From contig JBMNFF010000001.1 in NCBI GenBank assembly GCA_050949165.1, positions 1,059,185-1,123,184 on the forward strand: DNA of 64,000 bases, written 5' to 3'. Position numbers and translations under genes: made by a program. This document shows, one piece after another, positions 3,669 through 51,773 of the stretch. The notes beneath the pieces were generated by a model. That model was not told the origin of the DNA, ran no database searches, and saw nothing but the letters and a program-made list of their open reading frames with translations. Source of the DNA: Bacillota bacterium. Lineage in GTDB: Bacteria > Bacillota > Proteinivoracia > UBA4975. Numbering within the stretch: the first letter of the stretch is position 1; every line of letters begins with the position of its first letter.

Positions 3669-4694
3669 TTATGGATATAAGATGATTTTGCCGCTATTGC
3701 CACTGATGGCCAGGGCAAAGGCCTCTTCAAACTCCTCAAATTTAAAGCGATGGGTAATCAGGGGTGTCAAATCCAGCCCTGCCCGGAGCAGGGCCTGCAT
3801 CTGGTACCATGTCTCATACATCCTGCGCCCATTGATGCCGTATACCTTGGCGCCCTTGAAGATAATCCCGTCGGCCAGGTCAATTTCCACCGGTTTTGAC
3901 GGCAATCCCAAGAGGGCGGCCCAACCTCCCTTGCGCAGAGCCCGAAAACCTTCGTTGATGGCCGGGGCCGTCCCCGCCATCTCCAGGAGCACATCCACGC
4001 CCAGGCCCTCGGTCTCTTCCAGAATCCGGGCCACCACATCGTCCCTGCCCACTTTGAAAACCCTGTCCGCCCCCAGCTTGAGGGCCAGATCCAGACGATA
4101 ATCATTGAGGTCGCTGGCATAAACCCTCGTGGCGCCTGCCTTTTTGGCGATGGCCGCCGCCGCTACGCCGATGGGACCGCAACCGGTGATGAGCACCGTC
4201 TTGCCCGTGATGGTGTCGGCCAGGGCGGTGTGCACGGCGTTGCCAAAGGGGTCGTGGATGGCGGCAACCTCGGTGGGAATGTCCTCATCCAACACCCAGA
4301 TGTTGCTGCGGGGCACCCGCACGTACTCGGCAAAGCAGCCGTCGGTATCCACGCCGATGATCTCCACATCCTGGCAGATATGGGCCTGACCGGTGCGGCA
4401 GAAATAACACTTGCCGCAGACAAAATGGCCCTCGGCGCTGACCCGGGTCCCCAGGGCCAGGTCTTCAACCCCTTCCCCCAAGGCCGCCACCTCGCCGCAG
4501 AACTCATGGCCGAAGACCAGGGGAGGCTTTATCCGCCCCGCCGCCCAGGGGTCCCAACTGTAAATATGCACATCTGTGCCGCAGATGGCGGCGGCGGTGA
4601 CCTTTACCAATACCTCTCCGCGCCGGGGTATGGGGACAGGAACCTGCTCCAGTCGAGCGCCCGCCTCCGGGGCATGCTTGACCAGAGCCTTCAT
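3669..4694 (-). CDS. tdh: L-threonine 3-dehydrogenase
   Basis: Zn-dependent ADH fold, MKALVK N-terminus and AAICGTDVHIY motif as in Tdh; start may instead be TTG at 4706 (RBS GAGGAGTGG) or the ORF-track GTG at 4736. Confidence 0.85.
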   Translation of the reverse strand: MKALVKHAPEAGARLEQVPVPIPRRGEVLVKVTAAAICGTDVHIYSWDPWAAGRIKPPLVFGHEFCGEVAALGEGVEDLALGTRVSAEGHFVCGKCYFCRTGQAHICQDVEIIGVDTDGCFAEYVRVPRSNIWVLDEDIPTEVAAIHDPFGNAVHTALADTITGKTVLITGCGPIGVAAAAIAKKAGATRVYASDLNDYRLDLALKLGADRVFKVGRDDVVARILEETEGLGVDVLLEMAGTAPAINEGFRALRKGGWAALLGLPSKPVEIDLADGIIFKGAKVYGINGRRMYETWYQMQALLRAGLDLTPLITHRFKFEEFEEAFALAISGNSGKIILYP

Positions 4695-4800
4695 AGTGTC
4701 AACCAAGGTTACCACTCCTCGAATAAGATTTGTCACCCTATTACTATTGGCTCACTTGGAAGAATACGACAAGAGAAATGTGAATTCCTGCCCAAAGAAA

Positions 4801-4850
4801 GGGGACGGGACTTTTCGTTTCACCGACCTGAAACGAAAAGCCCCGTCCCC
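4801..4850 (-). terminator. GC-rich hairpin (about 21-bp arms, 6-nt loop) between transketolase stop and tdh; probable terminator; GGGGACGG-type palindrome
   Basis: ggggacgggacttttcgtttca / tgaaacgaaaagccccgtcccc inverted repeat 8 nt after the tkt stop, followed by T-rich tract on the minus strand. Confidence 0.6.
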
Positions 4851-4857
4851 GTTGTTT

Positions 4858-5787
4858 CTACTTCTTCAGCTTAAGCCCGGCCTCGATGATCTCCTTGGCC
4901 GTCAGGCCATACTTCTCCAGGAGCTCCCCGGGTTTACCGGATTCTCCGAAGGTATCCCGGACGCCGATGCGCACCAGGGGCGTGGGATGTTCCTCGCCCA
5001 GGACTTCGGCGATGGCGCCGCCCAGACCACCGATGATGCTGTGTTCCTCGGCGGTGACCACCGCCCCGCAGCGCCGGGCATACTTGACAACCGTCTCGGC
5101 ATCCAGGGGCTTGATGGTGTGGACATTGACCACGGCGGCGCTGATTCCCCGATCCGCCAGGTCCGCCGCCGCCTCCAGAGCCTGGTGCACCATGTAGCCG
5201 CAGGCAAAGATGACCAGGTCGTCGCCATCCCGCAGCACCTGCGCTCTGCCCGGCTGGAGCTGGTAATCTTCTCCGTTGACGGTGGGCACCGCTGCCCTGC
5301 CTAAACGCAAGTAGACCGGGCCTTGGTGCTCTGCCGCCCAGCGGGTCATGGCTGCGGCCTCGGGGGCGTCGGCGGGCACCAGCACCGTCAGATTGGGCAA
5401 CGCCCGCATCAGGGCGATGTCCTCGTTCATCTGGTGGGTGGCTCCGTCCTCCCCCACGGTGAGCCCGGCGTGGGTGGCGGCAATCTTGACATTGAGATTG
5501 GGATAGGCTATGGAAGTGCGAATCTGATCATAGCAGCGGCCGGCGGCAAAGATGGCGAAGGTGCTGGCAAAGGGGACTTTGCCCGCGGCTGCCAGGCCGG
5601 CGGCGGCGCCCATCATATCCGCCTCGGCAATGCCGATATTAAAAAAGCGGTGGGGAAACTCTTTGGCAAAGAGGGCAGTCTTGGTAGACCCTGAGAGATC
5701 GGCGTCCAGGACGACGATGCGTTCATCCTCGGCCCCCAGCTGGGCCAGAGCCTTGCCGTAGGCCTCCCTGGTAGCTATCTTGGTCAT
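4858..5787 (-). CDS. transketolase, C-terminal subunit
   Basis: MTKIATREAYG start with GGAGGTGG RBS; transketolase C-terminal/pyrimidine-binding domain motifs; longer ORF-track N-terminus rejected. Confidence 0.9.
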   Translation of the reverse strand: MTKIATREAYGKALAQLGAEDERIVVLDADLSGSTKTALFAKEFPHRFFNIGIAEADMMGAAAGLAAAGKVPFASTFAIFAAGRCYDQIRTSIAYPNLNVKIAATHAGLTVGEDGATHQMNEDIALMRALPNLTVLVPADAPEAAAMTRWAAEHQGPVYLRLGRAAVPTVNGEDYQLQPGRAQVLRDGDDLVIFACGYMVHQALEAAADLADRGISAAVVNVHTIKPLDAETVVKYARRCGAVVTAEEHSIIGGLGGAIAEVLGEEHPTPLVRIGVRDTFGESGKPGELLEKYGLTAKEIIEAGLKLKK

Positions 5788-15349: not shown

Positions 15350-15874
15350 TCAAACCTGCGGCTCGATCAGGCCGTAGTTGCCGTCCTTGCGCCGGTAGAC
15401 GACATTGGCCTGGTTGGACTCGGCATTGGTAAACACGAAGAAGTCGTGTCCCAGCAGGTTCATCTGCAGCACTGCCTCGTCGGGAAGCATGGGCTTGATG
15501 GCAAAGCGCTTGGTCTTGACAATCCTCGGTTCGTCTTCATCCCAGATTCTGCCGTCTTCACCGGCAGCCAAGCCGGTTTGCCTAGCTTTGCGGTTGATTC
15601 TGGTCTTGTATTTGCGGATTTGGCGCTCCAGTTTCTCCACCACCAGGTCGATGGAGGCATACATGTCCGCCGATTCCTCTTCTGCCCTGATCAGCATTCC
15701 GCCATTGAGCAAGAGCATCGCCTCTACCACGTGGGATTCCTTGACCACACTGAGGGTGACCTGAGCTTCGGTGTTGGCATCAAAGTACTTGGCTATCTTC
15801 CCTATTTTCTTTTCCACATGAGCCCTGAGCGCGTCTGTTATTTCGATATTCTTACCCCGAGTAGTAATCCGCAT
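15350..15874 (-). CDS. hpf: ribosome hibernation-promoting factor (long form)
   Basis: MRITTRGKNIEITDALR start with AAAGGAG RBS; HPF N-domain plus C-terminal dimerisation domain. Confidence 0.9.
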   Translation of the reverse strand: MRITTRGKNIEITDALRAHVEKKIGKIAKYFDANTEAQVTLSVVKESHVVEAMLLLNGGMLIRAEEESADMYASIDLVVEKLERQIRKYKTRINRKARQTGLAAGEDGRIWDEDEPRIVKTKRFAIKPMLPDEAVLQMNLLGHDFFVFTNAESNQANVVYRRKDGNYGLIEPQV

Positions 15875-15973
15875 ACAACCAACTCCTTTCAGTGCTGTAC
15901 TATATTTATTCCCCAAATCCCCATGAAATCCTGCCAGTAAAAACTAAAATCCCGCCGAAGCGGGATGGTTAGT

Positions 15974-16171
15974 CTACAGTTTTACAACGTTTGCAGCTTG
16001 CAGGCCCTTGTCACTGTCCACCAAATCAAATTCGACAACGTCGCCTTCGTCAAGGGTTCTGTAACCTTCGCCTTGAATGGCGCTGTAGTGTACAAACACG
16101 TCGTCGCCATCCTCGCGCTGAATGAAACCCCAACCCTTTTTCTGATTAAACCACTTGACCTTTCCTTGCAC
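15974..16171 (-). CDS. cold-shock protein, CspA family
   Basis: 65 aa, GKVKWFN and GFGFI-like RNP motifs; GTG start with GGAGGT RBS. Confidence 0.9.
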
Positions 16172-16482
16172 TAAAACTTACCTCCAAAAATGATGTAGCT
16201 TGTAAAGCTCGATTCATCCTACCATAGTAAAAAGGCCAATGTCAATTTTACCGAAAAAACTGTCAATGAAGTCCGACAGCTGACCTGGTCTTTGCCCCCA
16301 CACTCGCCTGCTGGAGGGTTCGCGCTAACTACTGCCTCTCTCGGTTTTCCCGGCAGGACTTACTTCTAAGCCGCACCATGCTCGGCAGTTGGTTTTTTTT
16401 GCTGCCTTACGTGGGTCGTTTCGCCTGCGACTGGCCTCGACTTTCAACCACAGACCTGTCAGACATCATTAGAGTAACGTAT

Positions 16483-20914: not shown

Positions 20915-22105
20915 TTATTCTTCCAGTCCTGCCTCCCGGCGCAGCACCTCGGCCTTGTCGGTCTTTTCCCAGGGCAGGTCCAAGTCGGTGCGGCCCATGT
21001 GGCCGTACGCAGCGACCTGCCGGTAGATGGGGCGGCGCAGGTTCATGTCCCGGATGATGCCGCCGGTGCTGAGGTCAAAGTGCTTGGCAATCAGCTCTTC
21101 TATCTTGGCATTGGGCACCTTGCCGGTGCCGAAGGTCTCCACGCTGATGGAAACCGGCTGGGCCACGCCAATGGCATAGGCCAACTGCACTTCGCACTTG
21201 TCGGCCAGGCCGGCGGCCACCACATTCTTGGCAACCCAGCGGGCAGCATAGGCCCCGGAGCGGTCCACCTTGGTGGGGTCCTTGCCCGAGAAGGCGCCGC
21301 CGCCGTGGCGGGAATAGCCGCCGTAAGTATCCACGATGATCTTGCGCCCGGTGAGTCCGGCATCCCCCTGGGGTCCTCCCACCACAAAGCGGCCGGTGGG
21401 GTTTATGTAGTACTTGGTCCCGGCATCCAGGAGGTCGGCGGGGATGGACTTCTTGACCACTTCTTCGATGATCTCCTCCCGCAGCCGCTCCAAGGGAATA
21501 TCCGGCTTGTGCTGGGCCGAAACCACCACGGTGTGGACCCGGGCAGGCTTGCCGTCGATATATTCCACGGTGACCTGGGTCTTGCCGTCGGGACGAAGGT
21601 AAGGGAGAATCCGCTCCTTGCGCACCTCGGCCAGGCGCCGGGCCATGGTATGGGCCAAGGCGATGGGCATGGGCATCAATTCCGGGGTCTCAGCGCAGGC
21701 AAAGCCGAACATCATCCCCTGATCCCCTGCCCCCACCTGCTCGCCGTCTTTCTGCTCCCTGGCCTCCAGGGCTGTATCCACCCCCAGGGCGATGTCCGGG
21801 GACTGCTCGTCGATGGCAGTGAGGACGGCGCAGGTATCCCCGTCAAAGCCGTACTTGGCCCGGGTGTATCCGATTTTGCGCACTGTGTCCCGGACCAGGG
21901 AGGGGATGTCCACATAGCACTCGGTGGTAATCTCTCCCGTCACCAGGACCAGGCCGGTGGTGACCATGGTCTCGGCGGCTACCCGGGCATAGGGGTCGGC
22001 TTCTAGTATCGCATCTAAGATGGCATCGGATATCTGATCGGCGACCTTGTCGGGATGGCCCTCGGTAACTGATTCGGAAGTAAACAAGAACCTGTCAGCT
22101 TTCAA
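20915..22105 (-). CDS. metK: S-adenosylmethionine synthetase
   Basis: [19 protein letters not shown] and other MetK motifs; start moved to TTG at 22105 ([11 protein letters not shown]) preceded by GGAGGTG. Confidence 0.95.
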
Positions 22106-22144
22106 TTCCAACACCTCCACAAATATTCTGCTCAAACTGGCAAC

Positions 22145-22266
22145 AAAAAACCCCTTCAGGTTTGAAAGGGTTCGTCACCCCTCATCTGCGGGAATTGGCA
22201 CCGTGCCCCGTGGCCGGTTGCCGGGTTTCATCGGGCCCGCCCCTCCACCTCTCTCGATAAGAGCTC
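22145..22266 (-). ncRNA. SAM-I (S-box) riboswitch with intrinsic terminator, leader of metK
   Basis: minus-strand sequence CTCTTATCGAGAGAGGTGGAGGGGCGGGCCCGATGAAACCCGGCAACC...GGTGCCAATTCC...GCAGA matches S-box consensus; followed by hairpin and TTTTTT. Confidence 0.85.
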
Positions 22267-22427: not shown

Positions 22428-23369
22428 ATGGACAAGGTGCTAATCGGCATCGACCTGGGCGGGACCAACATCCAGGGAGCCGCCGCCAGCGGCGAGGAAA
22501 TCCTGCGCCGGGGCAAGATCGCCACCCGGGCCGCCCTGGGCCCGGAGACAGTGTTGGCGGATATCGCCGCCCTGGCCCTGGAACTGGCCCAGGGCAAAGA
22601 AATTGCCGCCATAGGCTTGGGCGCCCCCGGGCTCCTGGATTTGGAGCGGGGAATCTGCCTCTTCTCAGGCAATTTGCGCTGGCAAGGAGTTGCCCTCACC
22701 CAGCCCCTTTCCGATGAGCTGGGGGCCCCCGTCTTTCTGGACAATGACGTGCGGGTGGCCGCCCTGGGCGAACTGTCCCAAGGCAAGGCCAAGGGCTGCA
22801 AGGACTTTATCTATCTGACGGTGGGCACCGGCATCGGCTCCGGAATCTTCATCGACGGCCGCCTGCTTCGGGGACCCCGCTGGTCAGCCGGGGAAGTAGG
22901 CCATATGATTCTGGACCCCCAGGGCCCCCACTGCACCTGCGGCAGGCAGGGCTGCCTGGAGGCCCTGGCCTCGGCCACGGCCATAGCCCGGGAAGGGCGC
23001 GCCGCAGCGGCAGCGAACCCCGCCAGCCTCCTCAACACCCTGGCCGGCTCCCCCGAGGAAATCGACGCCGCCAAGGTCTTTGAGGCAGCCTCCGCCGGCG
23101 ACCCGGCCGCAAGCCAGGTGGTGGATACCGCCATGAACTGGCTGGGGATAGGCGTGGCCAACCTCATCAACATCTTCAACCCCCGGCTGGTGGTCATAGG
23201 CGGCGGCGTTTCCCTGGCGGGAGAGCAGCTCCTGGCCCCGGTCCGGGCCCAGGTTCAGCGCTACTGCATGGAGGTGCAAAAGGAAACCGTCACCGTCACC
23301 ACCTCGGCCCTGGACGACAGCGCCGGGGTGGCCGGCGCCCTGGAGCTGGCGCGCCGGCGCCTGGGTTGA
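22428..23369 (+). CDS. ROK-family sugar kinase
   Basis: IGIDLGGTN N-terminus, ROK zinc motif CTCGRQGCLE; ATG with GGAGGGAAGG RBS. Confidence 0.8.
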   Translation: MDKVLIGIDLGGTNIQGAAASGEEILRRGKIATRAALGPETVLADIAALALELAQGKEIAAIGLGAPGLLDLERGICLFSGNLRWQGVALTQPLSDELGAPVFLDNDVRVAALGELSQGKAKGCKDFIYLTVGTGIGSGIFIDGRLLRGPRWSAGEVGHMILDPQGPHCTCGRQGCLEALASATAIAREGRAAAAANPASLLNTLAGSPEEIDAAKVFEAASAGDPAASQVVDTAMNWLGIGVANLINIFNPRLVVIGGGVSLAGEQLLAPVRAQVQRYCMEVQKETVTVTTSALDDSAGVAGALELARRRLG

Positions 23370-23382
23370 GGAGGATAAACCC

Positions 23383-24258
23383 ATGCTCATCAACCCTGCC
23401 CGTCTCTTGGTTAGGGCCAGGGCCCAGGGCCGGGCCCTGGCGGCCTTTAACATCTACAATCTCGAGACCCTCCAGGGAGTGGCCGCCGCCGCAGCCCGGG
23501 CCGGCAGTCCCCTCCTGCTTCAGGCTTCGCCCCGAACGGTGGAATTTGCCGGCGCAGCTTACCTGGTCGCCATGGCCCGGGCCGCCGCCCGCCACTGGCA
23601 GATTCCCGTCGCCCTGCACCTGGATCATGCCAGGGACTTTGATCTGGTTGAGGAATGCCTCAGGGCCGGCTTCACCTCGGTGATGTATGATGGCTCCCGC
23701 CTGCCCCTGCAGGAAAACATCGCCAACACCCGACAGGTGGTGGAACTGGCCGCCCGCTACGGCGCCGCCGTGGAGGGAGAGTTGGGCCAGGTGGGAGGCG
23801 GCGGGTTAAGCCCCGATGACGAACAATACACCGATCCCCAGGAAGCCAGGGAATTTGCCCGGGCCACCGGCGTAGATATGCTGGCGGTGGCGGTGGGAAC
23901 GGCCCACGGCCTCTACCGGGGCGAACCCCATCTGGACTTTGGGCGCCTTGCCGAAATTGCCCGGGAGGTGCCCCTGCCCCTGGTCCTCCACGGCGGCTCC
24001 GGGGTGCCGGCCCCGGCAATTCGCCAGGCCATCGCCCTGGGAATCGCCAAGGTCAATATCGCCACCGAGCTGAAGCTGCCCTTCACCCGCACCCTGGTTC
24101 AGGAGCTGGTCCATCTGGCCGACCGCTCCCCGGAGGAAAGCGATCCCCGCCGGTACATGGCCGCCGCCCGGGAAGCGGTGGAGAAAATCGCCGCCGTCAA
24201 GGTGGCCATGTGTTGGATCCAAACCACCGCAAAGGAGTGCTGCTATGATTCTCAATGA
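23383..24258 (+). CDS. class II ketose-bisphosphate aldolase (tagatose/fructose-bisphosphate aldolase family)
   Basis: LHLDHA and HGGSG metal-binding motifs of class II aldolases. Confidence 0.8.
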   Translation: MLINPARLLVRARAQGRALAAFNIYNLETLQGVAAAAARAGSPLLLQASPRTVEFAGAAYLVAMARAAARHWQIPVALHLDHARDFDLVEECLRAGFTSVMYDGSRLPLQENIANTRQVVELAARYGAAVEGELGQVGGGGLSPDDEQYTDPQEAREFARATGVDMLAVAVGTAHGLYRGEPHLDFGRLAEIAREVPLPLVLHGGSGVPAPAIRQAIALGIAKVNIATELKLPFTRTLVQELVHLADRSPEESDPRRYMAAAREAVEKIAAVKVAMCWIQTTAKECCYDSQ

Positions 24259-26333: not shown

Positions 26334-28322
26334 ATGCAATTTGGCAAAGCCCGCCTCAGCTTCCGCGACGCAGGGAGGGCAGAGACAGTGACCTTCTCTG
26401 ACCTGAGCTGCAGCCACCCCCGGCTGCAGGTCTCCCCTCACCTGCAAAAACTCCGCCACGGCGCCGTCCTCACCTTGACCCTGACCGCTTCCGAGCCGGT
26501 GGAACTGGAAGAATTCATCCTGGAGGCCCAGCTTCCCAAGGGGAATATGCTCAGCAACGGTTACCAATCCTGGTCCCGAACCAAGCTCTACCGCCCCGAC
26601 CAATATATGGCTCCCCTCTTCGCCCTGGCCCGGCCCCTGCTCAGTCCTTACGGGGATTACTCCCTGATTCGGCGCAGCGGCCGCCGCGGCCATTTCTTTT
26701 CCTGGTCCTGGACAGGCTTTGAGCAGGAGGGCAACTGGTTCTTGCTGGGTTCCGACGCCGAAGACTGGGGATACACCCTCTTTGAGGTCGATGGACGCCA
26801 GGAAAAACTCTATATCCGCCGGGACTGCCAGGGCGAAATAACCTCGTCCTACCCCCTCCTCCAGCTCTACTACGGCTGGGGCGGTGAAGGTGAGGTGTGG
26901 GATGAATATGCCTCCCTGCTGACCCGCCGACGTCCCAACGCCCGGCGCTGCACCGGCTGGACCAGCTGGTACAACTACTATACAAAGATCGACGAGGAGA
27001 TCATCCTGGACAACCTCCGGGCCCTTTCGACCTCGGGGCACCCCTTCCAGATCTTCCAAATCGACGACGGCTGGCAGGAGGCCATCGGCGACTGGCTGGA
27101 TATCAACGCAAAATTCCCCTCGGGCCTGGCCAGCCTCGCCCGGACAATTCGCCAACGGGGTTTCCGCCCCGGCCTGTGGCTTTCCCCCTTCATTTGCGAT
27201 AAAAAATCCCGCCTGTGGCGGGAGAATTACGACTGGGTCCTCAAGGACGAGAAGGGTCGTCCTGTCAAGGCCGGCTGGAACCCCGGCTGGAATGGCTGGT
27301 TCTACGCCCTGGACTTCTATGCCCCGGGCTTTCAGACCTGGCTCAAGGAGGTCTTTGCCACCATCCTGGACCAATGGGGGTTCCAGATGGTCAAGCTGGA
27401 CTTCCTCTATGCCGTGGCCCTGCGCCCCCACCACGGCCGCTGCCGGGGGCGGATCATGGCCGAGGCCATGGAGTTCCTGCACCAAATCTGTGGAGACAAT
27501 TTCATCCTGGGCTGCGGCGTACCCCTGGCCCAATCAGCGGGCCGGGTGGACTTCTGTCGCATCGGCGCCGACGTGGCCCCCTACTGGGAAGACCGATTCC
27601 TGCGGACGATAGGCTACCGGGAGCGGGTCTCCACCCGCAACTCCCTGGCCAGCACCCTGCACCGGCATATGCTGGACAGGCGGTTCTTCCGCAACGATCC
27701 CGATGTCTTCCTCCTCCGGGACGGCGTCCCCAAGGTCAATGAGAACAAGCTCAGCCTCGCCGAGCGCCATACTTTATTCTTCCTCAACAACCTCCTGGGC
27801 GGCCTGGTCTTCCTCTCGGACCATGTGGGGGAGTACACCCCGGAGCAGCAGGCCCAGCTGGCCGAGATGTTCCCCAGCCTGGAAGCAGAAATAACCCGCT
27901 TCCATTACCAGGGGGAACTGTTTGTAATTGAGTTCCAGGTGGAGGAGCGGGAATACGTCGCCCTGGTAAACTTAAGCCCCAAACCCGCTTACCTCGACCT
28001 ACCCCCGGGCCAGTGGTTCCACCCGGAGCTTAAAGTCTGCACCGGCCACCTGGATTTGCAGCCCCACCAGACCCTCTGCCTGGCCAAGGTCAAGCCCCAG
28101 GCCCAGCCCTATGTGCTGGGGAGCAGCGGCCACCTGTACCCCGGCGCCCAGGTAGAATCCTTTACCCGGGAAGGGGATGGCTGGACCCTGACCCTGAAAT
28201 CCTACTCTTCCCCCCACACCCGGGTCTGGATAGCCCTGCCTGAAGGGATGGAAGAACTGGTGGTCAACGGCACCCGCCCAGAAATCATCCACTGGGGACG
28301 GTTCCCAGTGGCGCAAATCTAA
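26334..28322 (+). CDS. glycoside hydrolase, GH36-like (clan GH-D, alpha-galactosidase fold)
   Basis: QIDDGWQ, GLWLSPF and MVKLDF motifs typical of GH36/GH27 catalytic domain; family assignment by eye. Confidence 0.6.
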   Translation: MQFGKARLSFRDAGRAETVTFSDLSCSHPRLQVSPHLQKLRHGAVLTLTLTASEPVELEEFILEAQLPKGNMLSNGYQSWSRTKLYRPDQYMAPLFALARPLLSPYGDYSLIRRSGRRGHFFSWSWTGFEQEGNWFLLGSDAEDWGYTLFEVDGRQEKLYIRRDCQGEITSSYPLLQLYYGWGGEGEVWDEYASLLTRRRPNARRCTGWTSWYNYYTKIDEEIILDNLRALSTSGHPFQIFQIDDGWQEAIGDWLDINAKFPSGLASLARTIRQRGFRPGLWLSPFICDKKSRLWRENYDWVLKDEKGRPVKAGWNPGWNGWFYALDFYAPGFQTWLKEVFATILDQWGFQMVKLDFLYAVALRPHHGRCRGRIMAEAMEFLHQICGDNFILGCGVPLAQSAGRVDFCRIGADVAPYWEDRFLRTIGYRERVSTRNSLASTLHRHMLDRRFFRNDPDVFLLRDGVPKVNENKLSLAERHTLFFLNNLLGGLVFLSDHVGEYTPEQQAQLAEMFPSLEAEITRFHYQGELFVIEFQVEEREYVALVNLSPKPAYLDLPPGQWFHPELKVCTGHLDLQPHQTLCLAKVKPQAQPYVLGSSGHLYPGAQVESFTREGDGWTLTLKSYSSPHTRVWIALPEGMEELVVNGTRPEIIHWGRFPVAQI

Positions 28323-28464
28323 ACCTGCGACAACAGGGATGTTTCAGATCGTCTCAAAATCCATCTCCGCACGCTCCCGGAACCAGGGAGGTAATCGGCT
28401 CTCGAGACGGCGCCCATAACACAACGGAAACAAATTTGAGACAGGTGCACGCGTCCCCGCTGTA

Positions 28465-29118
28465 TCATTGCGAAGGGAAAAAGTGCTGCATTGCCCTATT
28501 TTTATTTTCTTGTGACAGCTTAGTTATTTCATTGGATCGGTGGATATTATTTAATCTATACCTAACCCAAGCCGGAAATATCTCTTTCATGTCCTGGGCA
28601 TACAAAGAGCCGTCCCTGGGAAACTGTTTCCCGATTACCGTAAATCCGCCGTTGGTTAAATCCACTGTAACCAAACAGGGCATGGATGAACCGCTTTCCT
28701 TCACGACTCTTCCCTGTTGGGGAAAATAAATTTCCTCCAGCACCCAGAGGTAAACCTCCACCTTTTCATCTGAAATAAAAGAGTATCCATAGATTCTAAA
28801 GGATGCAAAGCTTTCTGCATTATCCGATTTGGCATGCCCCGCTGTCAAATATTCCTGAATAACTTTGATATTATCCTCAGCAAAGGACATGTTTCTTTGC
28901 TTGCCAAATAAAGTAATCATTTCACTAACGTTTCTACCCTTTTTCGCAACCTTATAGCCTAGGCCGATGTAAATAATTGCTTCATCAGTATCGGAAGTCC
29001 GAATGCTGAATATCGGATTTTTATTAGCCAGAAATCTGTAATAGTCCACTCCGAATAGTATGGTCCACGCAACCAAAATAACCAGACCAAAGAACAACAG
29101 TTTGCGTTTTAGTAACAA
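28465..29118 (-). CDS. hypothetical membrane-anchored protein encoded in an AT-rich insert
   Basis: 217-aa ORF, TTG start with AAGGGG RBS; N-terminal TM helix; local GC clearly below flanks. Confidence 0.5.
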   Translation of the reverse strand: MLLKRKLLFFGLVILVAWTILFGVDYYRFLANKNPIFSIRTSDTDEAIIYIGLGYKVAKKGRNVSEMITLFGKQRNMSFAEDNIKVIQEYLTAGHAKSDNAESFASFRIYGYSFISDEKVEVYLWVLEEIYFPQQGRVVKESGSSMPCLVTVDLTNGGFTVIGKQFPRDGSLYAQDMKEIFPAWVRYRLNNIHRSNEITKLSQENKNRAMQHFFPSQ

Positions 29119-29144
29119 TTATATTTCCCCTTAATCATTAGATA

Positions 29145-29168
29145 TGGCCAAGAAATATTTCTTGGCCA
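29145..29168. promoter_or_regulatory. 24-bp perfect palindrome TGGCCAAGAAATATTTCTTGGCCA upstream of the AT-rich-island gene
   Basis: about 27 nt upstream of the TTG start at 29118; candidate operator or terminator. Confidence 0.4.
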
Positions 29169-29400
29169 CTAGCCTCTATCTTCTAACCCTAGCGTACTTA
29201 GGGATATTGTTCTCCCAGCCGTTTACGGAACTACTTGTCCAAGCATGATAGTTGCTAGTGTGTTGAGCTACCTTATAGTCATAATAAGTTTTCCAGAATA
29301 TTGTACTCCTTATTATTTTATAATTTAACTATATTGCTACTTGATTAACATTTCAAGTATTTATATACAATAAATTTTTGTTTTAAAAGGAGGCATTGAA

Positions 29401-30735
29401 ATGTCCACCCTGGTAAAACCCCGCATGACCACCCGCGATAAGATCACCCTGGCCATCCTGGTCCTGATGTCTGTCTTCCTCTATGCCGACATGAACGCCA
29501 TCACTCCCGTGGTCACCGACATCATGGCCGAGTACGGCATCAGCGAAAGCGACATCGGCCTGGTGGGCTCGGCCTTCACCCTGATTGGCGCCATCGTCAG
29601 CATCGTCTTCGGCTTCCTGGCCGACCGCACTTCCCGCAAATGGCTGCTGGCCTTTGTGGTCCTGGTGGGGGAAATCCCCTGCTTCCTCACCGGCATCAAG
29701 TTCTTCACCCAAACCTATGAGCAGCTTCTCTTCCTGCGGATTTTGACCGGTCTGGGAGTGGGCGGCATCTTCCCCATCACCTTCTCCCTCATCGGCGACT
29801 ACTTCCACGCCCATCACCGCCCCATGGCGACGGCCTTTGTGGGAGCGGCCTGGGGCATCGGCGAAATTGCCGGCAGCATTATCGCTGGCTTCCTGGCCGG
29901 CCCCTACGGCTGGCGCCTGCCCTTCATCGTCGCCGCCGCCCCCAACTTCCTCCTGGTGCCCCTCTTCCTCCTCATCGCCAAGGAACCGGCCCGCGGCGCC
30001 CAGGAAGAGCAAGTCCAGGAACTCATGGCCCAGGGCATCGAGTACAACGAAAAGATCCGCCTCAAAGACCTCAAGTACGTCCTCACCAACAAGACCAATA
30101 TCCTGGGCTACCTCCAGGGAGTCCCCGGCTCTCTGCCCTGGGGCATCCTACCCTTCTACCTCATCGCCTATTACGAGGTTGTCCAGGGCTTCAGCAAGGA
30201 AATGGGCACCACCATCTTCTTCCTCTTCGGCGTTGGCGCCACCATCGGCGGCATCCTGGGGGGTTGGCTGGGCCAGGTTGTTTACAAAAAGGACCCCCGC
30301 TACATGCCCCTGCTGGCCGGCGGCACCGTCCTGGCCGGCATCATCCCTACCATGTTCCTCCTCAACATCTCCTGGCCCACCGACCCCGGACTGGTGGACT
30401 GGCTGCTGCCGGTGGCCTTTGCTATCTTTTCCGGAGCCCTGATCACCATTGCCGGGCCCAATATCAAGTCCATCCTCCTCAATGTCAACCCGCCGGAGCA
30501 CCGGGGTACCGTCTTTGCCCTCCACAATATCTTCGACTCTATCGGCAAGGGCGTGGGCCCCTTCATCGGCGGTCTCCTCATCACCAAAATTGGCTACACC
30601 TTCACCGTGTATTTTTCCGCCCTGATGTGGATCCCCTGCGGCCTCATCTTCCTGGCCATCTACTGGACCATCAGGAAGGACATCGACTATGTCAATCGCT
30701 ACCTGGACGAAAAAGCGGCCAAGCTGGCCGGGTGA
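29401..30735 (+). CDS. MFS transporter
   Basis: 444 aa, 12 predicted TM helices, MFS signature RxxRK-like loop between TM2 and TM3; AAAGGAGG RBS. Confidence 0.85.
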   Translation: MSTLVKPRMTTRDKITLAILVLMSVFLYADMNAITPVVTDIMAEYGISESDIGLVGSAFTLIGAIVSIVFGFLADRTSRKWLLAFVVLVGEIPCFLTGIKFFTQTYEQLLFLRILTGLGVGGIFPITFSLIGDYFHAHHRPMATAFVGAAWGIGEIAGSIIAGFLAGPYGWRLPFIVAAAPNFLLVPLFLLIAKEPARGAQEEQVQELMAQGIEYNEKIRLKDLKYVLTNKTNILGYLQGVPGSLPWGILPFYLIAYYEVVQGFSKEMGTTIFFLFGVGATIGGILGGWLGQVVYKKDPRYMPLLAGGTVLAGIIPTMFLLNISWPTDPGLVDWLLPVAFAIFSGALITIAGPNIKSILLNVNPPEHRGTVFALHNIFDSIGKGVGPFIGGLLITKIGYTFTVYFSALMWIPCGLIFLAIYWTIRKDIDYVNRYLDEKAAKLAG

Positions 30736-50364: not shown

Positions 50365-50403
50365 AAAAAGAACAGGTCAATCTTCTAAGGATTGGCCTGT
50401 TCT

Positions 50404-51399
50404 TTAATTGCTGAGTTCCGCCCTAAGCTGCAAGACCTCAGATATGGGAAGCTCAGACACTTGCGCCACTTGCTCAGGAGTAAATCCCAGCCGGAGCGCA
50501 TTTCTGGCTGCTAGTCTCTTTGCCTCCAGAATCCCTTCAGCCCTGCCCTCTGCCCTGCCTTCTGCCCTGCCTTCAACCCGGTACTTCTGCCAGGTTTCCT
50601 GCAAGATTCGTTCAAAATTAGTTATCAATGATTTTCCCCCCTTCCTTCTCAAATGGATCAGGACTCGATCACGGTCGTGTTTCTCCATTCCCTTTAAGAG
50701 TACCTTACCTGTCCACCTAGAAAAACGCCGTACATCTTCTTCCGGCATCTGATCCAAGACTGCAGCAAGCTCACCGATTCCAAACAGCACCTCATCCATC
50801 CCTCTGTGTTGCTCCATATAGAAGACACTACCCATCAAATTGCCCAGGGCAAGCAGCTGGCCCTTGCCATATCTATTTACATCAACGAGGATGTATTTAA
50901 AATCTAATGCGTATTTGCTAAAGAACTGAAATCCTGCCTGACATTGGCTAAAGCTTGTCCCCGCCGTCCATTTGCCTTTCCCATTGTATAGCACGCACGG
51001 GACAATAACCGGCAGAGCGAAACTCCCTTTACAGGCAACCTCATTGAACCAATAATTGCGCCAGATTTCCACCATATACATCAATAAACGAAAGGGCATC
51101 ATTTGATCGACGGTAGATTGCAATTCCAGCAAGAGATAGAAGTATACATCTTGCTCGGCCAAACGAAGCCTGTAGATCAGATCGGCCTCTTGGTGCCGAA
51201 AGTCCTGTAGTATAAAGGATTTTGGAATAAGCATTACGTCTTTCGCCTGAATGCCCTTGACCCACTCTGCCTTAACAAAGGTCTGCAAGAATTGCAGAAA
51301 GGTCGACTTATTGGCCAGCAAATACTTGTACCCCGTATCATGCTTATTGCTGGGGACCGCATATTCCTGGTCTGGCTCCCTAACCAAGGCTAAGGACAT
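50404..51399 (-). CDS. Rpn-family (YhgA-like, PD-(D/E)XK) recombination-promoting nuclease / putative transposase
   Basis: N-terminal HDxxYKxL and nuclease core pattern, C-terminal repeat-containing domain (EGRA x3-4 then LGFTPEQVA...LP) as in E. coli Rpn proteins; start moved to MSLALV at 51399. Confidence 0.7.
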   Translation of the reverse strand: MSLALVREPDQEYAVPSNKHDTGYKYLLANKSTFLQFLQTFVKAEWVKGIQAKDVMLIPKSFILQDFRHQEADLIYRLRLAEQDVYFYLLLELQSTVDQMMPFRLLMYMVEIWRNYWFNEVACKGSFALPVIVPCVLYNGKGKWTAGTSFSQCQAGFQFFSKYALDFKYILVDVNRYGKGQLLALGNLMGSVFYMEQHRGMDEVLFGIGELAAVLDQMPEEDVRRFSRWTGKVLLKGMEKHDRDRVLIHLRRKGGKSLITNFERILQETWQKYRVEGRAEGRAEGRAEGILEAKRLAARNALRLGFTPEQVAQVSELPISEVLQLRAELSN

Positions 51400-51524
51400 A
51401 GTAGCCGCCGCCTTAATAATAATGTTAGCACAGTTTCCAATAATATAATATAGGAACACGTGTTCCCTGTCTAGCTTATCTTTTCTCTGATGGTAGCAGA
51501 AATAGAGTCTCCAATTAAGCGGGT

Positions 51525-51773
51525 GGGGCTGTCGCAAAATGAGATATTCGTACATATTCTCCCGAAAATCTCTCCGGGTAGGGGCCGAAAGTATAAAGAA
51601 GGAGCTGTCGCAAAACTAAATCTCCGCGCATATTACCTCAAGAAAATCTCTGTGGGTGGGGGCCAAAAGATCCCCCTATAAAGGTAATCCAATGTAGGGG
51701 CGGGTTTTCCCGCCCGACTCACAAGAATGGCTAATTGGGGAATATGGCGGATTGCCAGTTTTGCGACAGCCCC
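51525..51773. mobile_element. MITE-like element bounded by inverted GGGGCTGTCGCAAAA(T/C) termini, with internal partial duplication
   Basis: left terminus 51525-51541, internal direct copy 51601-51616, inverted right terminus 51758-51773; no ORF. Confidence 0.55.

Follow-up and report, generated by a model that had tools for sequence, protein, structure and literature searches.

Within a 64-kb stretch of a Bacillota bacterium contig (JBMNFF010000001.1; hereafter the window, whose positions serve as coordinates throughout), a sugar cluster of this uncultured, high-GC organism is interrupted by an AT-rich islet of about 0.9 kb whose only intact gene, orf217, lies on the minus strand. The islet is placed between a GH36/melibiase-like gene on its left (26334-28322, plus strand) and an MFS transporter gene on its right (29401-30735, plus strand), the latter followed by a GH1 gene; ROK, aldolase, PGI-like and PfkB genes make up the cluster before the GH36-like gene. 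An earlier note on this DNA had described a sharp GC drop between the GH36-like and MFS genes, and a scan in 300-bp windows bears this out: GC content is 0.60-0.70 on either side and 0.32-0.48 across about 28350-29550, with the lowest value, 0.32, at 29100-29399. Over 28430-29400 the GC content is 0.384 versus 0.591 for the whole window, and the bin 28801-29400 (0.355) is the minimum among the 600-bp bins of the 64 kb. Codon usage deviates as well, since GC at third codon positions (GC3) is 0.44 in orf217 and 0.78-0.86 in every neighbouring gene, so that both the composition and the codon usage deviate from the host, as in acquired islets. The homology-defined core of the islet spans 28474..29384 (GC 0.38-0.40 against about 0.61 in the flanks); its left edge is uncertain within 28403-28474, and its right edge lies within a few nucleotides of 29384.

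The note had described a single 217-residue gene on the minus strand. It is indeed the sole intact gene, but a 38-codon remnant of a second gene lies upstream of it at 29176-29292. By tblastn and blastp, this segment (29176..29292, minus strand) is an in-frame remnant of a secreted Amidase_6 gene, comprising residues 310-347 and the stop codon. The minus-strand translation of 29179-29292, KTYYDYKVAQHTSNYHAWTSSSVNGWENNIPKYARVRR followed by the stop, is identical in 35 of 38 residues to the C-terminus of the amidase encoded at L009 (labels of the form L0xx denote comparator loci or contigs). The L009 amidase has 347 residues, matches Amidase_6 (PF12671) with an E value of 2.6e-17 and retains the Cys and His core of that domain, the invariant family residues Cys205 and His293 both lying upstream of residue 310. 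The window copy lacks this core: the parts that held the catalytic Cys and His have been lost, and there is no start codon. Because only residues 310-347 remain and no start codon precedes them, we regard the window copy as a pseudogene remnant.

The upstream signals of the amidase gene have outlived its coding sequence. A relic ribosome-binding site (RBS; AAGGAG, 29307..29312, minus strand) can be aligned to that of the amidase genes in L009 and L010, and the breakpoint of the amidase deletion lies just downstream of it. Further upstream, a scan found a sigma-70-like promoter with 10 of 12 consensus matches (TTGAAA-17 nucleotides-TATAGT, 29328..29356, minus strand), which comes from the amidase gene; its aligned counterpart before the intact L009 amidase reads TTGAAA-17-TATAAT. 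The entire segment 29302-29400, read on the minus strand, matches the L009 amidase promoter, its 5' untranslated region or short leader, the RBS and then a relic MFS RBS, with a local alignment score of 46 versus 11.6 +/- 1.9 (maximum 22) for shuffled sequences. Homology to the amidase promoter region of L009 thus extends to 29400, and over 28474-29301, that is, past the orf217 start, DNA identity to L009 and L010 is 85.7%. Read along the minus strand, the order is promoter (29356-29328), RBS (29312-29307), a deletion of codons ~1-309, the last 38 codons and stop of the amidase (29292-29176), a stem-loop (29170-29143), a second RBS (29132-29126) and orf217 (29118-28465). On this arrangement, the AT-rich islet is very probably the eroded remnant of a two-gene operon that encoded an amidase and its membrane-anchored partner, and the relic amidase promoter, about 210 nucleotides upstream, is the likely promoter of orf217. 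A riboswitch or other known RNA in the leader was rejected, since the conserved stretch there is the former coding sequence of the amidase C-terminus; the sole Rfam match over 28300-29450 was at chance level (17 bits versus a gathering score of 208).

An intact unit of this kind is found in L009 and L017, both from fermentation metagenomes; a metagenome scan with the close sequences added only L017, which is a near-duplicate of L009. Both carry a homologue of orf217 with 219 residues (orf219), 77% identical in amino acids and 85.7% in nucleotides, and an intact amidase gene (1179-2222) placed 61 nucleotides upstream of orf219 (2284-2943) on the same strand. Read by eye, the N-terminus of the L009 amidase, MKRILYCLLILLFCLPGFISA, resembles a Sec-type signal peptide. 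Adjacent, co-oriented genes and an exported enzyme, as in a pair of a toxin or hydrolase and its immunity protein, are therefore both found in L009 and L017.

Evidence that the islet is foreign comes from L014 and L015, metagenome-assembled genomes labelled 'Bacillota bacterium', whose GH36-like proteins are 77% and 72% identical to that of the window. In both, the GH36-like, MFS and GH1 genes are contiguous, the GH36-MFS spacer measures 109 bp and 30 bp, respectively, and neither the islet nor the GC dip was found at the junction. Because these relatives keep the cluster contiguous without the insert, we regard the AT-rich DNA as foreign, which is highly likely on the sequence comparison; the earlier note's claim of horizontal acquisition thus gains support beyond composition alone. 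Its idea of a cassette stands insofar as the DNA is acquired, but the islet is an eroded remnant of a two-gene operon and not a clean one-gene unit. Ancestral flanks could be recognised on both sides: a host spacer after the GH36-like gene (28323..28402, plus strand, GC 0.56) aligns with L014 and L015, where its counterpart is either the last part of the GH36-like gene or lies just after it; the ancestral RBS region of MFS (AAGGAGG, 29385..29400, plus strand), which marks the right-hand junction, is conserved in both. The insert therefore sits in a short spacer, within an operon that the relatives keep unbroken. Its source is probably a low-GC Firmicute.

The same site is occupied by the islet in two further lineages, one represented by L009, L010 and L017 and the other by L011-13. 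Moreover, nine contigs from several Joint Genome Institute metagenomes carry it in the same context at 99.5-100% identity; the islet is fixed in its own population. The insert is thus neither private nor recent, being fixed in the nine contigs and occupying the same site in lineages with 73-89% identity in the flanking DNA. No significant flanking repeats or terminal inverted repeats were found at the islet. An insertion sequence (IS), a miniature inverted-repeat transposable element or an integrative cassette was rejected on the lack of terminal inverted repeats, a target duplication and a mobility gene. A phage or plasmid origin was likewise discarded, orf217 having no phage match and the amidase no plasmid match; a plasmid search with orf217 gave one weak match, to a Niallia megaplasmid where it is unannotated, and a fold search of BFVD returned nothing significant.

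Comparison of the lineages that hold the islet outlines its history. In L009 and L010, the orf219 stop is directly followed by the 3' region of the GH36-like gene (nucleotide identity 88.5% and 89.5%, respectively), and the right-hand junction is common to the window and L009, because the MFS RBS relic adjoins the L009 amidase promoter. L011-13 carry a 220-residue homologue, orf220 (69% amino acid and 77% nucleotide identity to orf217), with a left junction as in L009. There, a 29-residue relic of the GH36 C-terminus is joined directly to a homologue (73% nucleotide identity) of window positions 22457-23485, which hold ROK and the start of the aldolase; therefore, about 4.7 kb of the sugar cluster have been deleted in L011-13. 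The amidase itself is damaged differently in each lineage: codons ~1-309 are gone in the window, L009 positions 1193-1941 are gone in L010, and about 15 C-terminal codons are left in L011, within an open reading frame (ORF) of 47 residues. To judge from these sequences, the amidase has been lost independently three times, by different deletions, and each time the partner gene was kept.

Several further observations concern the same region of the sister lineages. The deletion of about 4.7 kb in L011-13 spans from aldolase codon ~34 to GH36 residue ~618, and the sugar cluster is decaying in the sisters in general (L009 3004-3765; L010 1361-1908; L011 2375-3468), with the GH36-like gene frameshifted in L009 and L010. 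L009 has a GC-rich patch (0.58) at 685-1100 within AT-rich DNA, also present in L017, which contains a segment agreeing in 28/29 nucleotides with MFS codons 18-27 (window 29452-29480). This segment runs opposite to the MFS RBS relic at ~1076-1100, and the rest of the MFS gene is missing, which suggests an inversion or rearrangement. A 121-residue ORF in this patch looks transposase-like by eye and has no Pfam match. In L012, an IS3-family element with rve and HTH_Tnp_1 ORFs occupies 114-1267, directly upstream of the leader of orf220 and its amidase stub; it is absent from L011 and L013. Upstream of orf220 in L011, a 120-residue ORF without a Pfam match (268-630) lies in AT-rich DNA and resembles small helical immunity-type proteins by eye, and several such small ORFs occur in the L011 island.

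The surviving gene, orf217 (28465..29118, minus strand), is an intact ORF of 217 codons with a TTG start, supported by ORF calling, homology and substitution rates, and is preceded at 7 nucleotides by the RBS AAGGGGA (29126..29132, minus strand), which reads AAGGGG or AAGGAG in L009-L013. Its counterparts of 217, 219 and 220 residues are intact in all lineages compared, with pairwise ratios of non-synonymous to synonymous substitution rates (dN/dS) of 0.23-0.37 at dS 0.34-0.76. Such values place orf217 under purifying selection, as far as substitution patterns tell, and we hold with high confidence that it is a functional gene. A spurious ORF was ruled out by dN/dS, conservation and the confident fold. 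The possibility that the islet is decaying junk, with orf217 merely its uneroded part and the palindrome functionless, is very improbable: although the amidase is deleted, the junctions vary by lineage and the stem has decayed in L009, all lineages keep an intact ORF at dS up to 0.76 with a low dN/dS, its RBS, start codon and family-wide motif are conserved, and its structural model is confident.

No match to orf217 was found in Pfam, NCBIfam, PHROGs or PADLOC; Pfam Imm-NTF2, DUF4829, DUF4830 and the other curated families all fail to include it. The hidden Markov model searches proposed earlier thus returned no curated or housekeeping family, and with the absence of the insert from L014 and L015, neither finding that could have undone the idea of acquisition, an insert in all relatives or a housekeeping protein, was made. 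A structural model proved more informative. Built from only 4 aligned sequences, it had a predicted local distance difference test score (pLDDT) of 51; a 61-sequence alignment was used instead and gave an AlphaFold model with pLDDT 95.3 and a predicted template-modelling score of 0.84. In this model, an N-terminal transmembrane (TM) helix at residues 2-30, in agreement with the membrane anchor claimed previously, is followed by a five-strand beta subdomain (39-77) and a cone formed by helices and a curved sheet (81-213). Because KRK precedes the TM helix, orf217 is predicted to be a signal anchor with its N-terminus inside and its C-terminus outside. The cone is NTF2/cystatin-like, having in the model the helices packed on a curved antiparallel sheet that characterise the NTF2-like alpha+beta cone, and carries the motif PRDGSxY..D.K..FP, with the family signature P147, P167-R-D169-G170-S-x-Y173 and F181-P182. 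Fold matches included PDB 3hzp, the ARC6 IMS domain (5gtb), VirB8 (2cc3) and scytalone dehydratase (1idp), all at 5-12% identity, and a sequence search of the PDB with orf217 found no relative. Compared with the NTF2-like superfamily, orf217 adds the TM anchor and the juxtamembrane beta subdomain.

Between the amidase stop and the orf217 RBS lies a stem-loop (29143..29170, minus strand; repeat search and RNA fold), the core of which is a perfect 24-bp palindrome at 29145-29168. The arms, TGGCCAAGAAAT/ATTTCTTGGCCA, are 100% complementary without a spacer and lie 27 nucleotides upstream of the orf217 start, so the palindrome previously noted is confirmed; it is the longest perfect one in the window, and a 12-nucleotide arm appeared in 0 of 200 block-wise shuffles. 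RNA folding gives an 11-bp stem with a 4-nucleotide loop. The placement of the palindrome in a promoter region does not hold up: it is downstream of the likely promoter and, since it separates the amidase stop from the orf217 RBS, it is an intercistronic stem-loop and not a promoter part. The corresponding element of L011-13 has a 12-bp stem, CAGAGGCCAAGA / UCUUGGCCUCUG, closed by another loop; at the base of the stem one T:A pair has become A:T, which is a compensatory change. In L009 and L010 the stem is degraded, its 3' arm having changed from GGCC to GGAA. By this comparison the stem-loop is inherited and the perfect 24-bp symmetry is a local variant. An intrinsic (rho-independent) terminator was ruled out, since a stem is present but no U-run; the sequence after the stem is AUAUCUAAUGAUUAAGG, and a terminator scan did not call it. 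Most simply, the stem-loop could be an mRNA element, a partial terminator or stabiliser; it could also be a protein-binding site.

Close relatives of orf217 are few, amounting to four protein clusters among 5.8 billion sequences. A HMMER search with a profile of these four sequences reached 380 representatives at E <= 1e-3, 38 of them at E <= 1e-10. Across 61 relatives, no Pfam, NCBIfam, PHROG or PADLOC model covers the orf217 domain. The domain forms the extracytoplasmic end of HTH_3/XRE-TM proteins in 10 of the 61 and of BlaR1/MecR1-type Peptidase_M56 proteins in 4, and it is further fused to a zf-HC2 anti-sigma factor and to a PASTA-repeat protein. These fusions to signalling proteins place the domain in cell-envelope sensing or binding.

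A second connection between the domain and the amidase emerged from the amidase side. The L009 amidase has 202 homologues at E <= 1e-5 in Firmicutes, the best 120 of the 202 being 39-51% identical, and the genomic contexts of two such homologues were viewed (L021/L022 and L023-26). In L021/L022 (GC 0.27), a 325-residue HTH_3-TM protein is encoded directly upstream of an amidase homologue (49% identity), and its whole ectodomain matches the orf217 profile with 104.7 bits (E 1.5e-33). The neighbours there are conjugative-element-like, with a TraG-like coupling protein and a second cell-wall-hydrolase-like protein. On gene order, then, the association of the amidase with the orf217 family appears real in two independent architectures, and it is not a rule. 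The homologue in L023-26 (49% identity to L009) lies in an AT-rich islet of its own, between mfd and hydF (GC 0.37-0.46 versus 0.62-0.69 for the genome); in L023 this islet is at 3900-5600, and L024-26 have it too. Amidase_6 genes may thus recur as low-GC islets in high-GC Bacillota.

Taken as a whole, the best explanation, to which we give somewhat better than even chances, is that the islet is an acquired remnant of an operon of an amidase and a partner that binds and restrains it. The original minus-strand unit would have consisted of a promoter, an RBS and a gene for a Sec-secreted Amidase_6 peptidoglycan amidase of papain-like fold, then the intercistronic stem-loop, a second RBS and the gene for an outward-facing, membrane-anchored NTF2/cystatin-like protein. 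It would have entered the GH36-MFS spacer in an ancestor that the window lineage had in common with those of L009/L010/L017 and of L011-13. A later internal deletion in the window lineage would have removed amidase codons ~1-309, leaving the amidase promoter and RBS to drive a short stub that cannot be translated, along with the stem-loop and an intact orf217. The ectodomain of orf217 would be a wall-facing envelope binding module that once worked with the co-transcribed amidase, and the protein may have bound the amidase and restrained it, in an immunity-like manner, at the producer's own membrane surface; alternatively, it may sense the amidase or the wall products that this enzyme releases. 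We consider it an even bet that the function of orf217 is connected to the amidase at all; that it is specifically an immunity-like inhibitor is a tentative reading, for which the chances are clearly below even. It draws on the repeated losses, as an amidase lost three times with the partner always kept is the pattern expected of a protective partner, which retains its use as long as the enzyme is still secreted by related cells.

Comparison with known systems reveals both likeness and difference. Small acquired islets in the course of erosion are nothing unusual, and this one resembles other such islets and orphan immunity genes in its contrast of composition, its absence in syntenic relatives, the partner standing beside a truncated enzyme and the repeated loss of the enzyme. 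Unlike them, it yielded no integrase, IS, tRNA or target duplication; moreover, the amidase has an ordinary Sec-type signal and not the LXG, Rhs, contact-dependent inhibition or type VI or type VII secretion delivery domains, and immunity is a putative role here. Tae3 is a papain-like wall amidase with a dedicated immunity protein, and Amidase_6 has been placed near Tae3 (PMC10318531). The Tae3/Tai3 pair is alike in that a papain-like-fold wall amidase is encoded beside a small envelope protein, and unlike in belonging to a Gram-negative type VI secretion system with periplasmic immunity proteins; no Tai protein fold or sequence match is among the top PDB matches of orf217. NTF2-fold immunity proteins (Imm-NTF2) occur in polymorphic toxin systems (PMC3482391); they are cytoplasmic partners of nucleases, and orf217 has no Pfam match to them. 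RsiV, the anti-sigma-V factor, is a receptor for lysozyme (PMC4183432, PMC5014341). It is comparable by analogy only, as a membrane-anchored extracytoplasmic hydrolase-binding domain in a regulator, the relatives of orf217 carrying anti-sigma, XRE-HTH and BlaR1 modules; it differs in that no homology was detected and in that orf217 lacks a cytoplasmic output domain.

A number of findings weigh against an acquired amidase-partner operon as we propose it. The distribution of the islet is patchy: flank identity to the window is 73% for L011, 76% for L015 and 80% for L014, and L014 and L015 lack the islet, so that its presence in three lineages and its absence from two of similar distance call for either two clean losses or an exchange of the islet among related lineages by recombination of the flanks. 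At the left junction of the window (28403-28473, GC 0.55), the sequence is unmatched in L009, and the junctions of L009 and L011 are different; given that the C-terminus of orf217 also differs (FFPSQ versus FFPLEFGN in L009), at least one secondary rearrangement must have occurred. The islet shows no mobility signatures, with no integrase, transposase, tRNA or clear target duplication found at it. Beyond the two architectures the amidase link is wanting: the L023-26 amidase is followed by a 127-residue multi-TM protein with no orf217-like gene, no orf217-like neighbour was found beside amidase relatives in 15 viral contigs, and no amidase neighbour was found for the two members of the family that viral contigs carry or for six more. 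The unrelated contexts of family members hold an ABC-2 permease, a DHH phosphoesterase, an acetyltransferase, BioY and phage genes. The regulator fusions suggest sensing at least as much as immunity, and in B. subtilis the Amidase_6 link is to sporulation, not antagonism. Finally, the promoter and terminator calls are consensus matches only, and the comparators without exception come from metagenome contigs, of which some have low coverage.

The strongest competitor, which we nevertheless consider unlikely, is that orf217 acts as a stand-alone envelope sensor or co-sensor whose cone binds a small ligand or wall fragment and signals to a membrane partner, the amidase being its regulated target or a coincidence. 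That the same domain ends HTH_3-TM, BlaR1/MecR1-type M56, zf-HC2 anti-sigma and PASTA proteins outside the cell speaks for such a role, as do the regulator-like position of the HTH-fused form upstream of the amidase in L021 and the frequency of small-molecule binding among NTF2-like cones. However, orf217 has no output domain, only about 6 of its residues being cytoplasmic, the islet holds no partner gene, and retention of orf217 after three amidase losses is harder to explain if its job were to sense or regulate the amidase. An improbable alternative is a sporulation module, consisting of a YhbB-like mother-cell or coat amidase and a membrane protein that positions it, in which case orf217 would persist as a membrane protein of minor weight in sporulation. 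The B. subtilis Amidase_6 proteins YhbB and YjcM are uncharacterised and sporulation-linked (PMC10653849, PMC3533761). The deleted window gene belongs to the same Amidase_6 (PF12671) family and differs from them in having only 38 C-terminal codons left; Amidase_6 (COG5877) is among the conserved sporulation proteins, and YhbB is sigma-E dependent and spore-coat associated. Against this, the retained promoter is sigma-A-like (TTGAAA-17-TATAGT) and not sigma-E- or sigma-K-like, the amidase was dispensable in three lineages, and the islet is foreign and absent from relatives, unlike a core sporulation gene.

The remaining features of the region are minor. Directly after the orf217 stop, a consensus scan marked a weak terminator-like hairpin (28438..28457, minus strand), which is not kept in L009 and L011, where the end of the gene abuts the GH36-like stop. 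A speculative promoter-like site for MFS and GH1 (29252..29279, plus strand; 9 of 12 consensus matches) was called within the islet; the count of promoter-like sites in the region is no higher than in shuffles. On the plus strand, a 97-residue ORF at 28436-28729 is antisense to conserved coding sequence, and two hydrophobic ORFs of 34 and 27 residues at 29144-29328, the first beginning inside the palindrome, are antisense to the amidase stub; these two are probably antisense by-products, since L009 has one fused 80-residue antisense ORF there. The GH36-like C-terminus varies by lineage: the window gene ends at 28322, and the L015 homologue of the next 80 bp is still coding, giving 669 residues in L015 versus 662 in the window (window 28270-28402; L015 7920-8010), and the last ~17 residues in the window look frame-shifted relative to L009 and L014. 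Elsewhere in the window, further lower-GC bins (0.445-0.49) at 1801-2400 and 50401-51600 may be acquired or intergenic, and another at 15601-16200 adjoins a raiA RNA motif (Rfam RF03072) at 16271-16464 on the minus strand (182 bits versus a gathering score of 101). A SAM riboswitch (S-adenosylmethionine; RF00162, 71 bits) at 22179-22263 on the minus strand lies upstream of the minus-strand ORF 20915-22135 and just ahead of the sugar-cluster ROK gene.

For the organism, the islet parts MFS and GH1 from the upstream operon and sets a convergent gene and AT-rich, promoter-like DNA before them, which, to go by this layout, probably alters their transcription. For annotation, an AT-rich insert that appears to hold one gene can be recognised as what is left of a larger unit, through its inherited promoter, gene stump and intercistronic hairpin. 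The lead that we regard as most worth following is a confidently folded domain without a curated model, with at least 380 relatives, found at the outer end of envelope signalling proteins and linked twice to Amidase_6 wall hydrolases that are themselves uncharacterised. As a long shot, the orf217 family might represent undescribed outward-facing, membrane-anchored NTF2-like Firmicute proteins that recognise secreted papain-like peptidoglycan amidases, the stand-alone forms serving as immunity proteins or inhibitors and the domain in BlaR1-type, XRE-HTH, anti-sigma and PASTA proteins serving as a receptor for hydrolases or wall damage, as RsiV does with lysozyme. If the amidase link holds, it would give a handle on both families; otherwise, the locus would be an ordinary small acquired islet.

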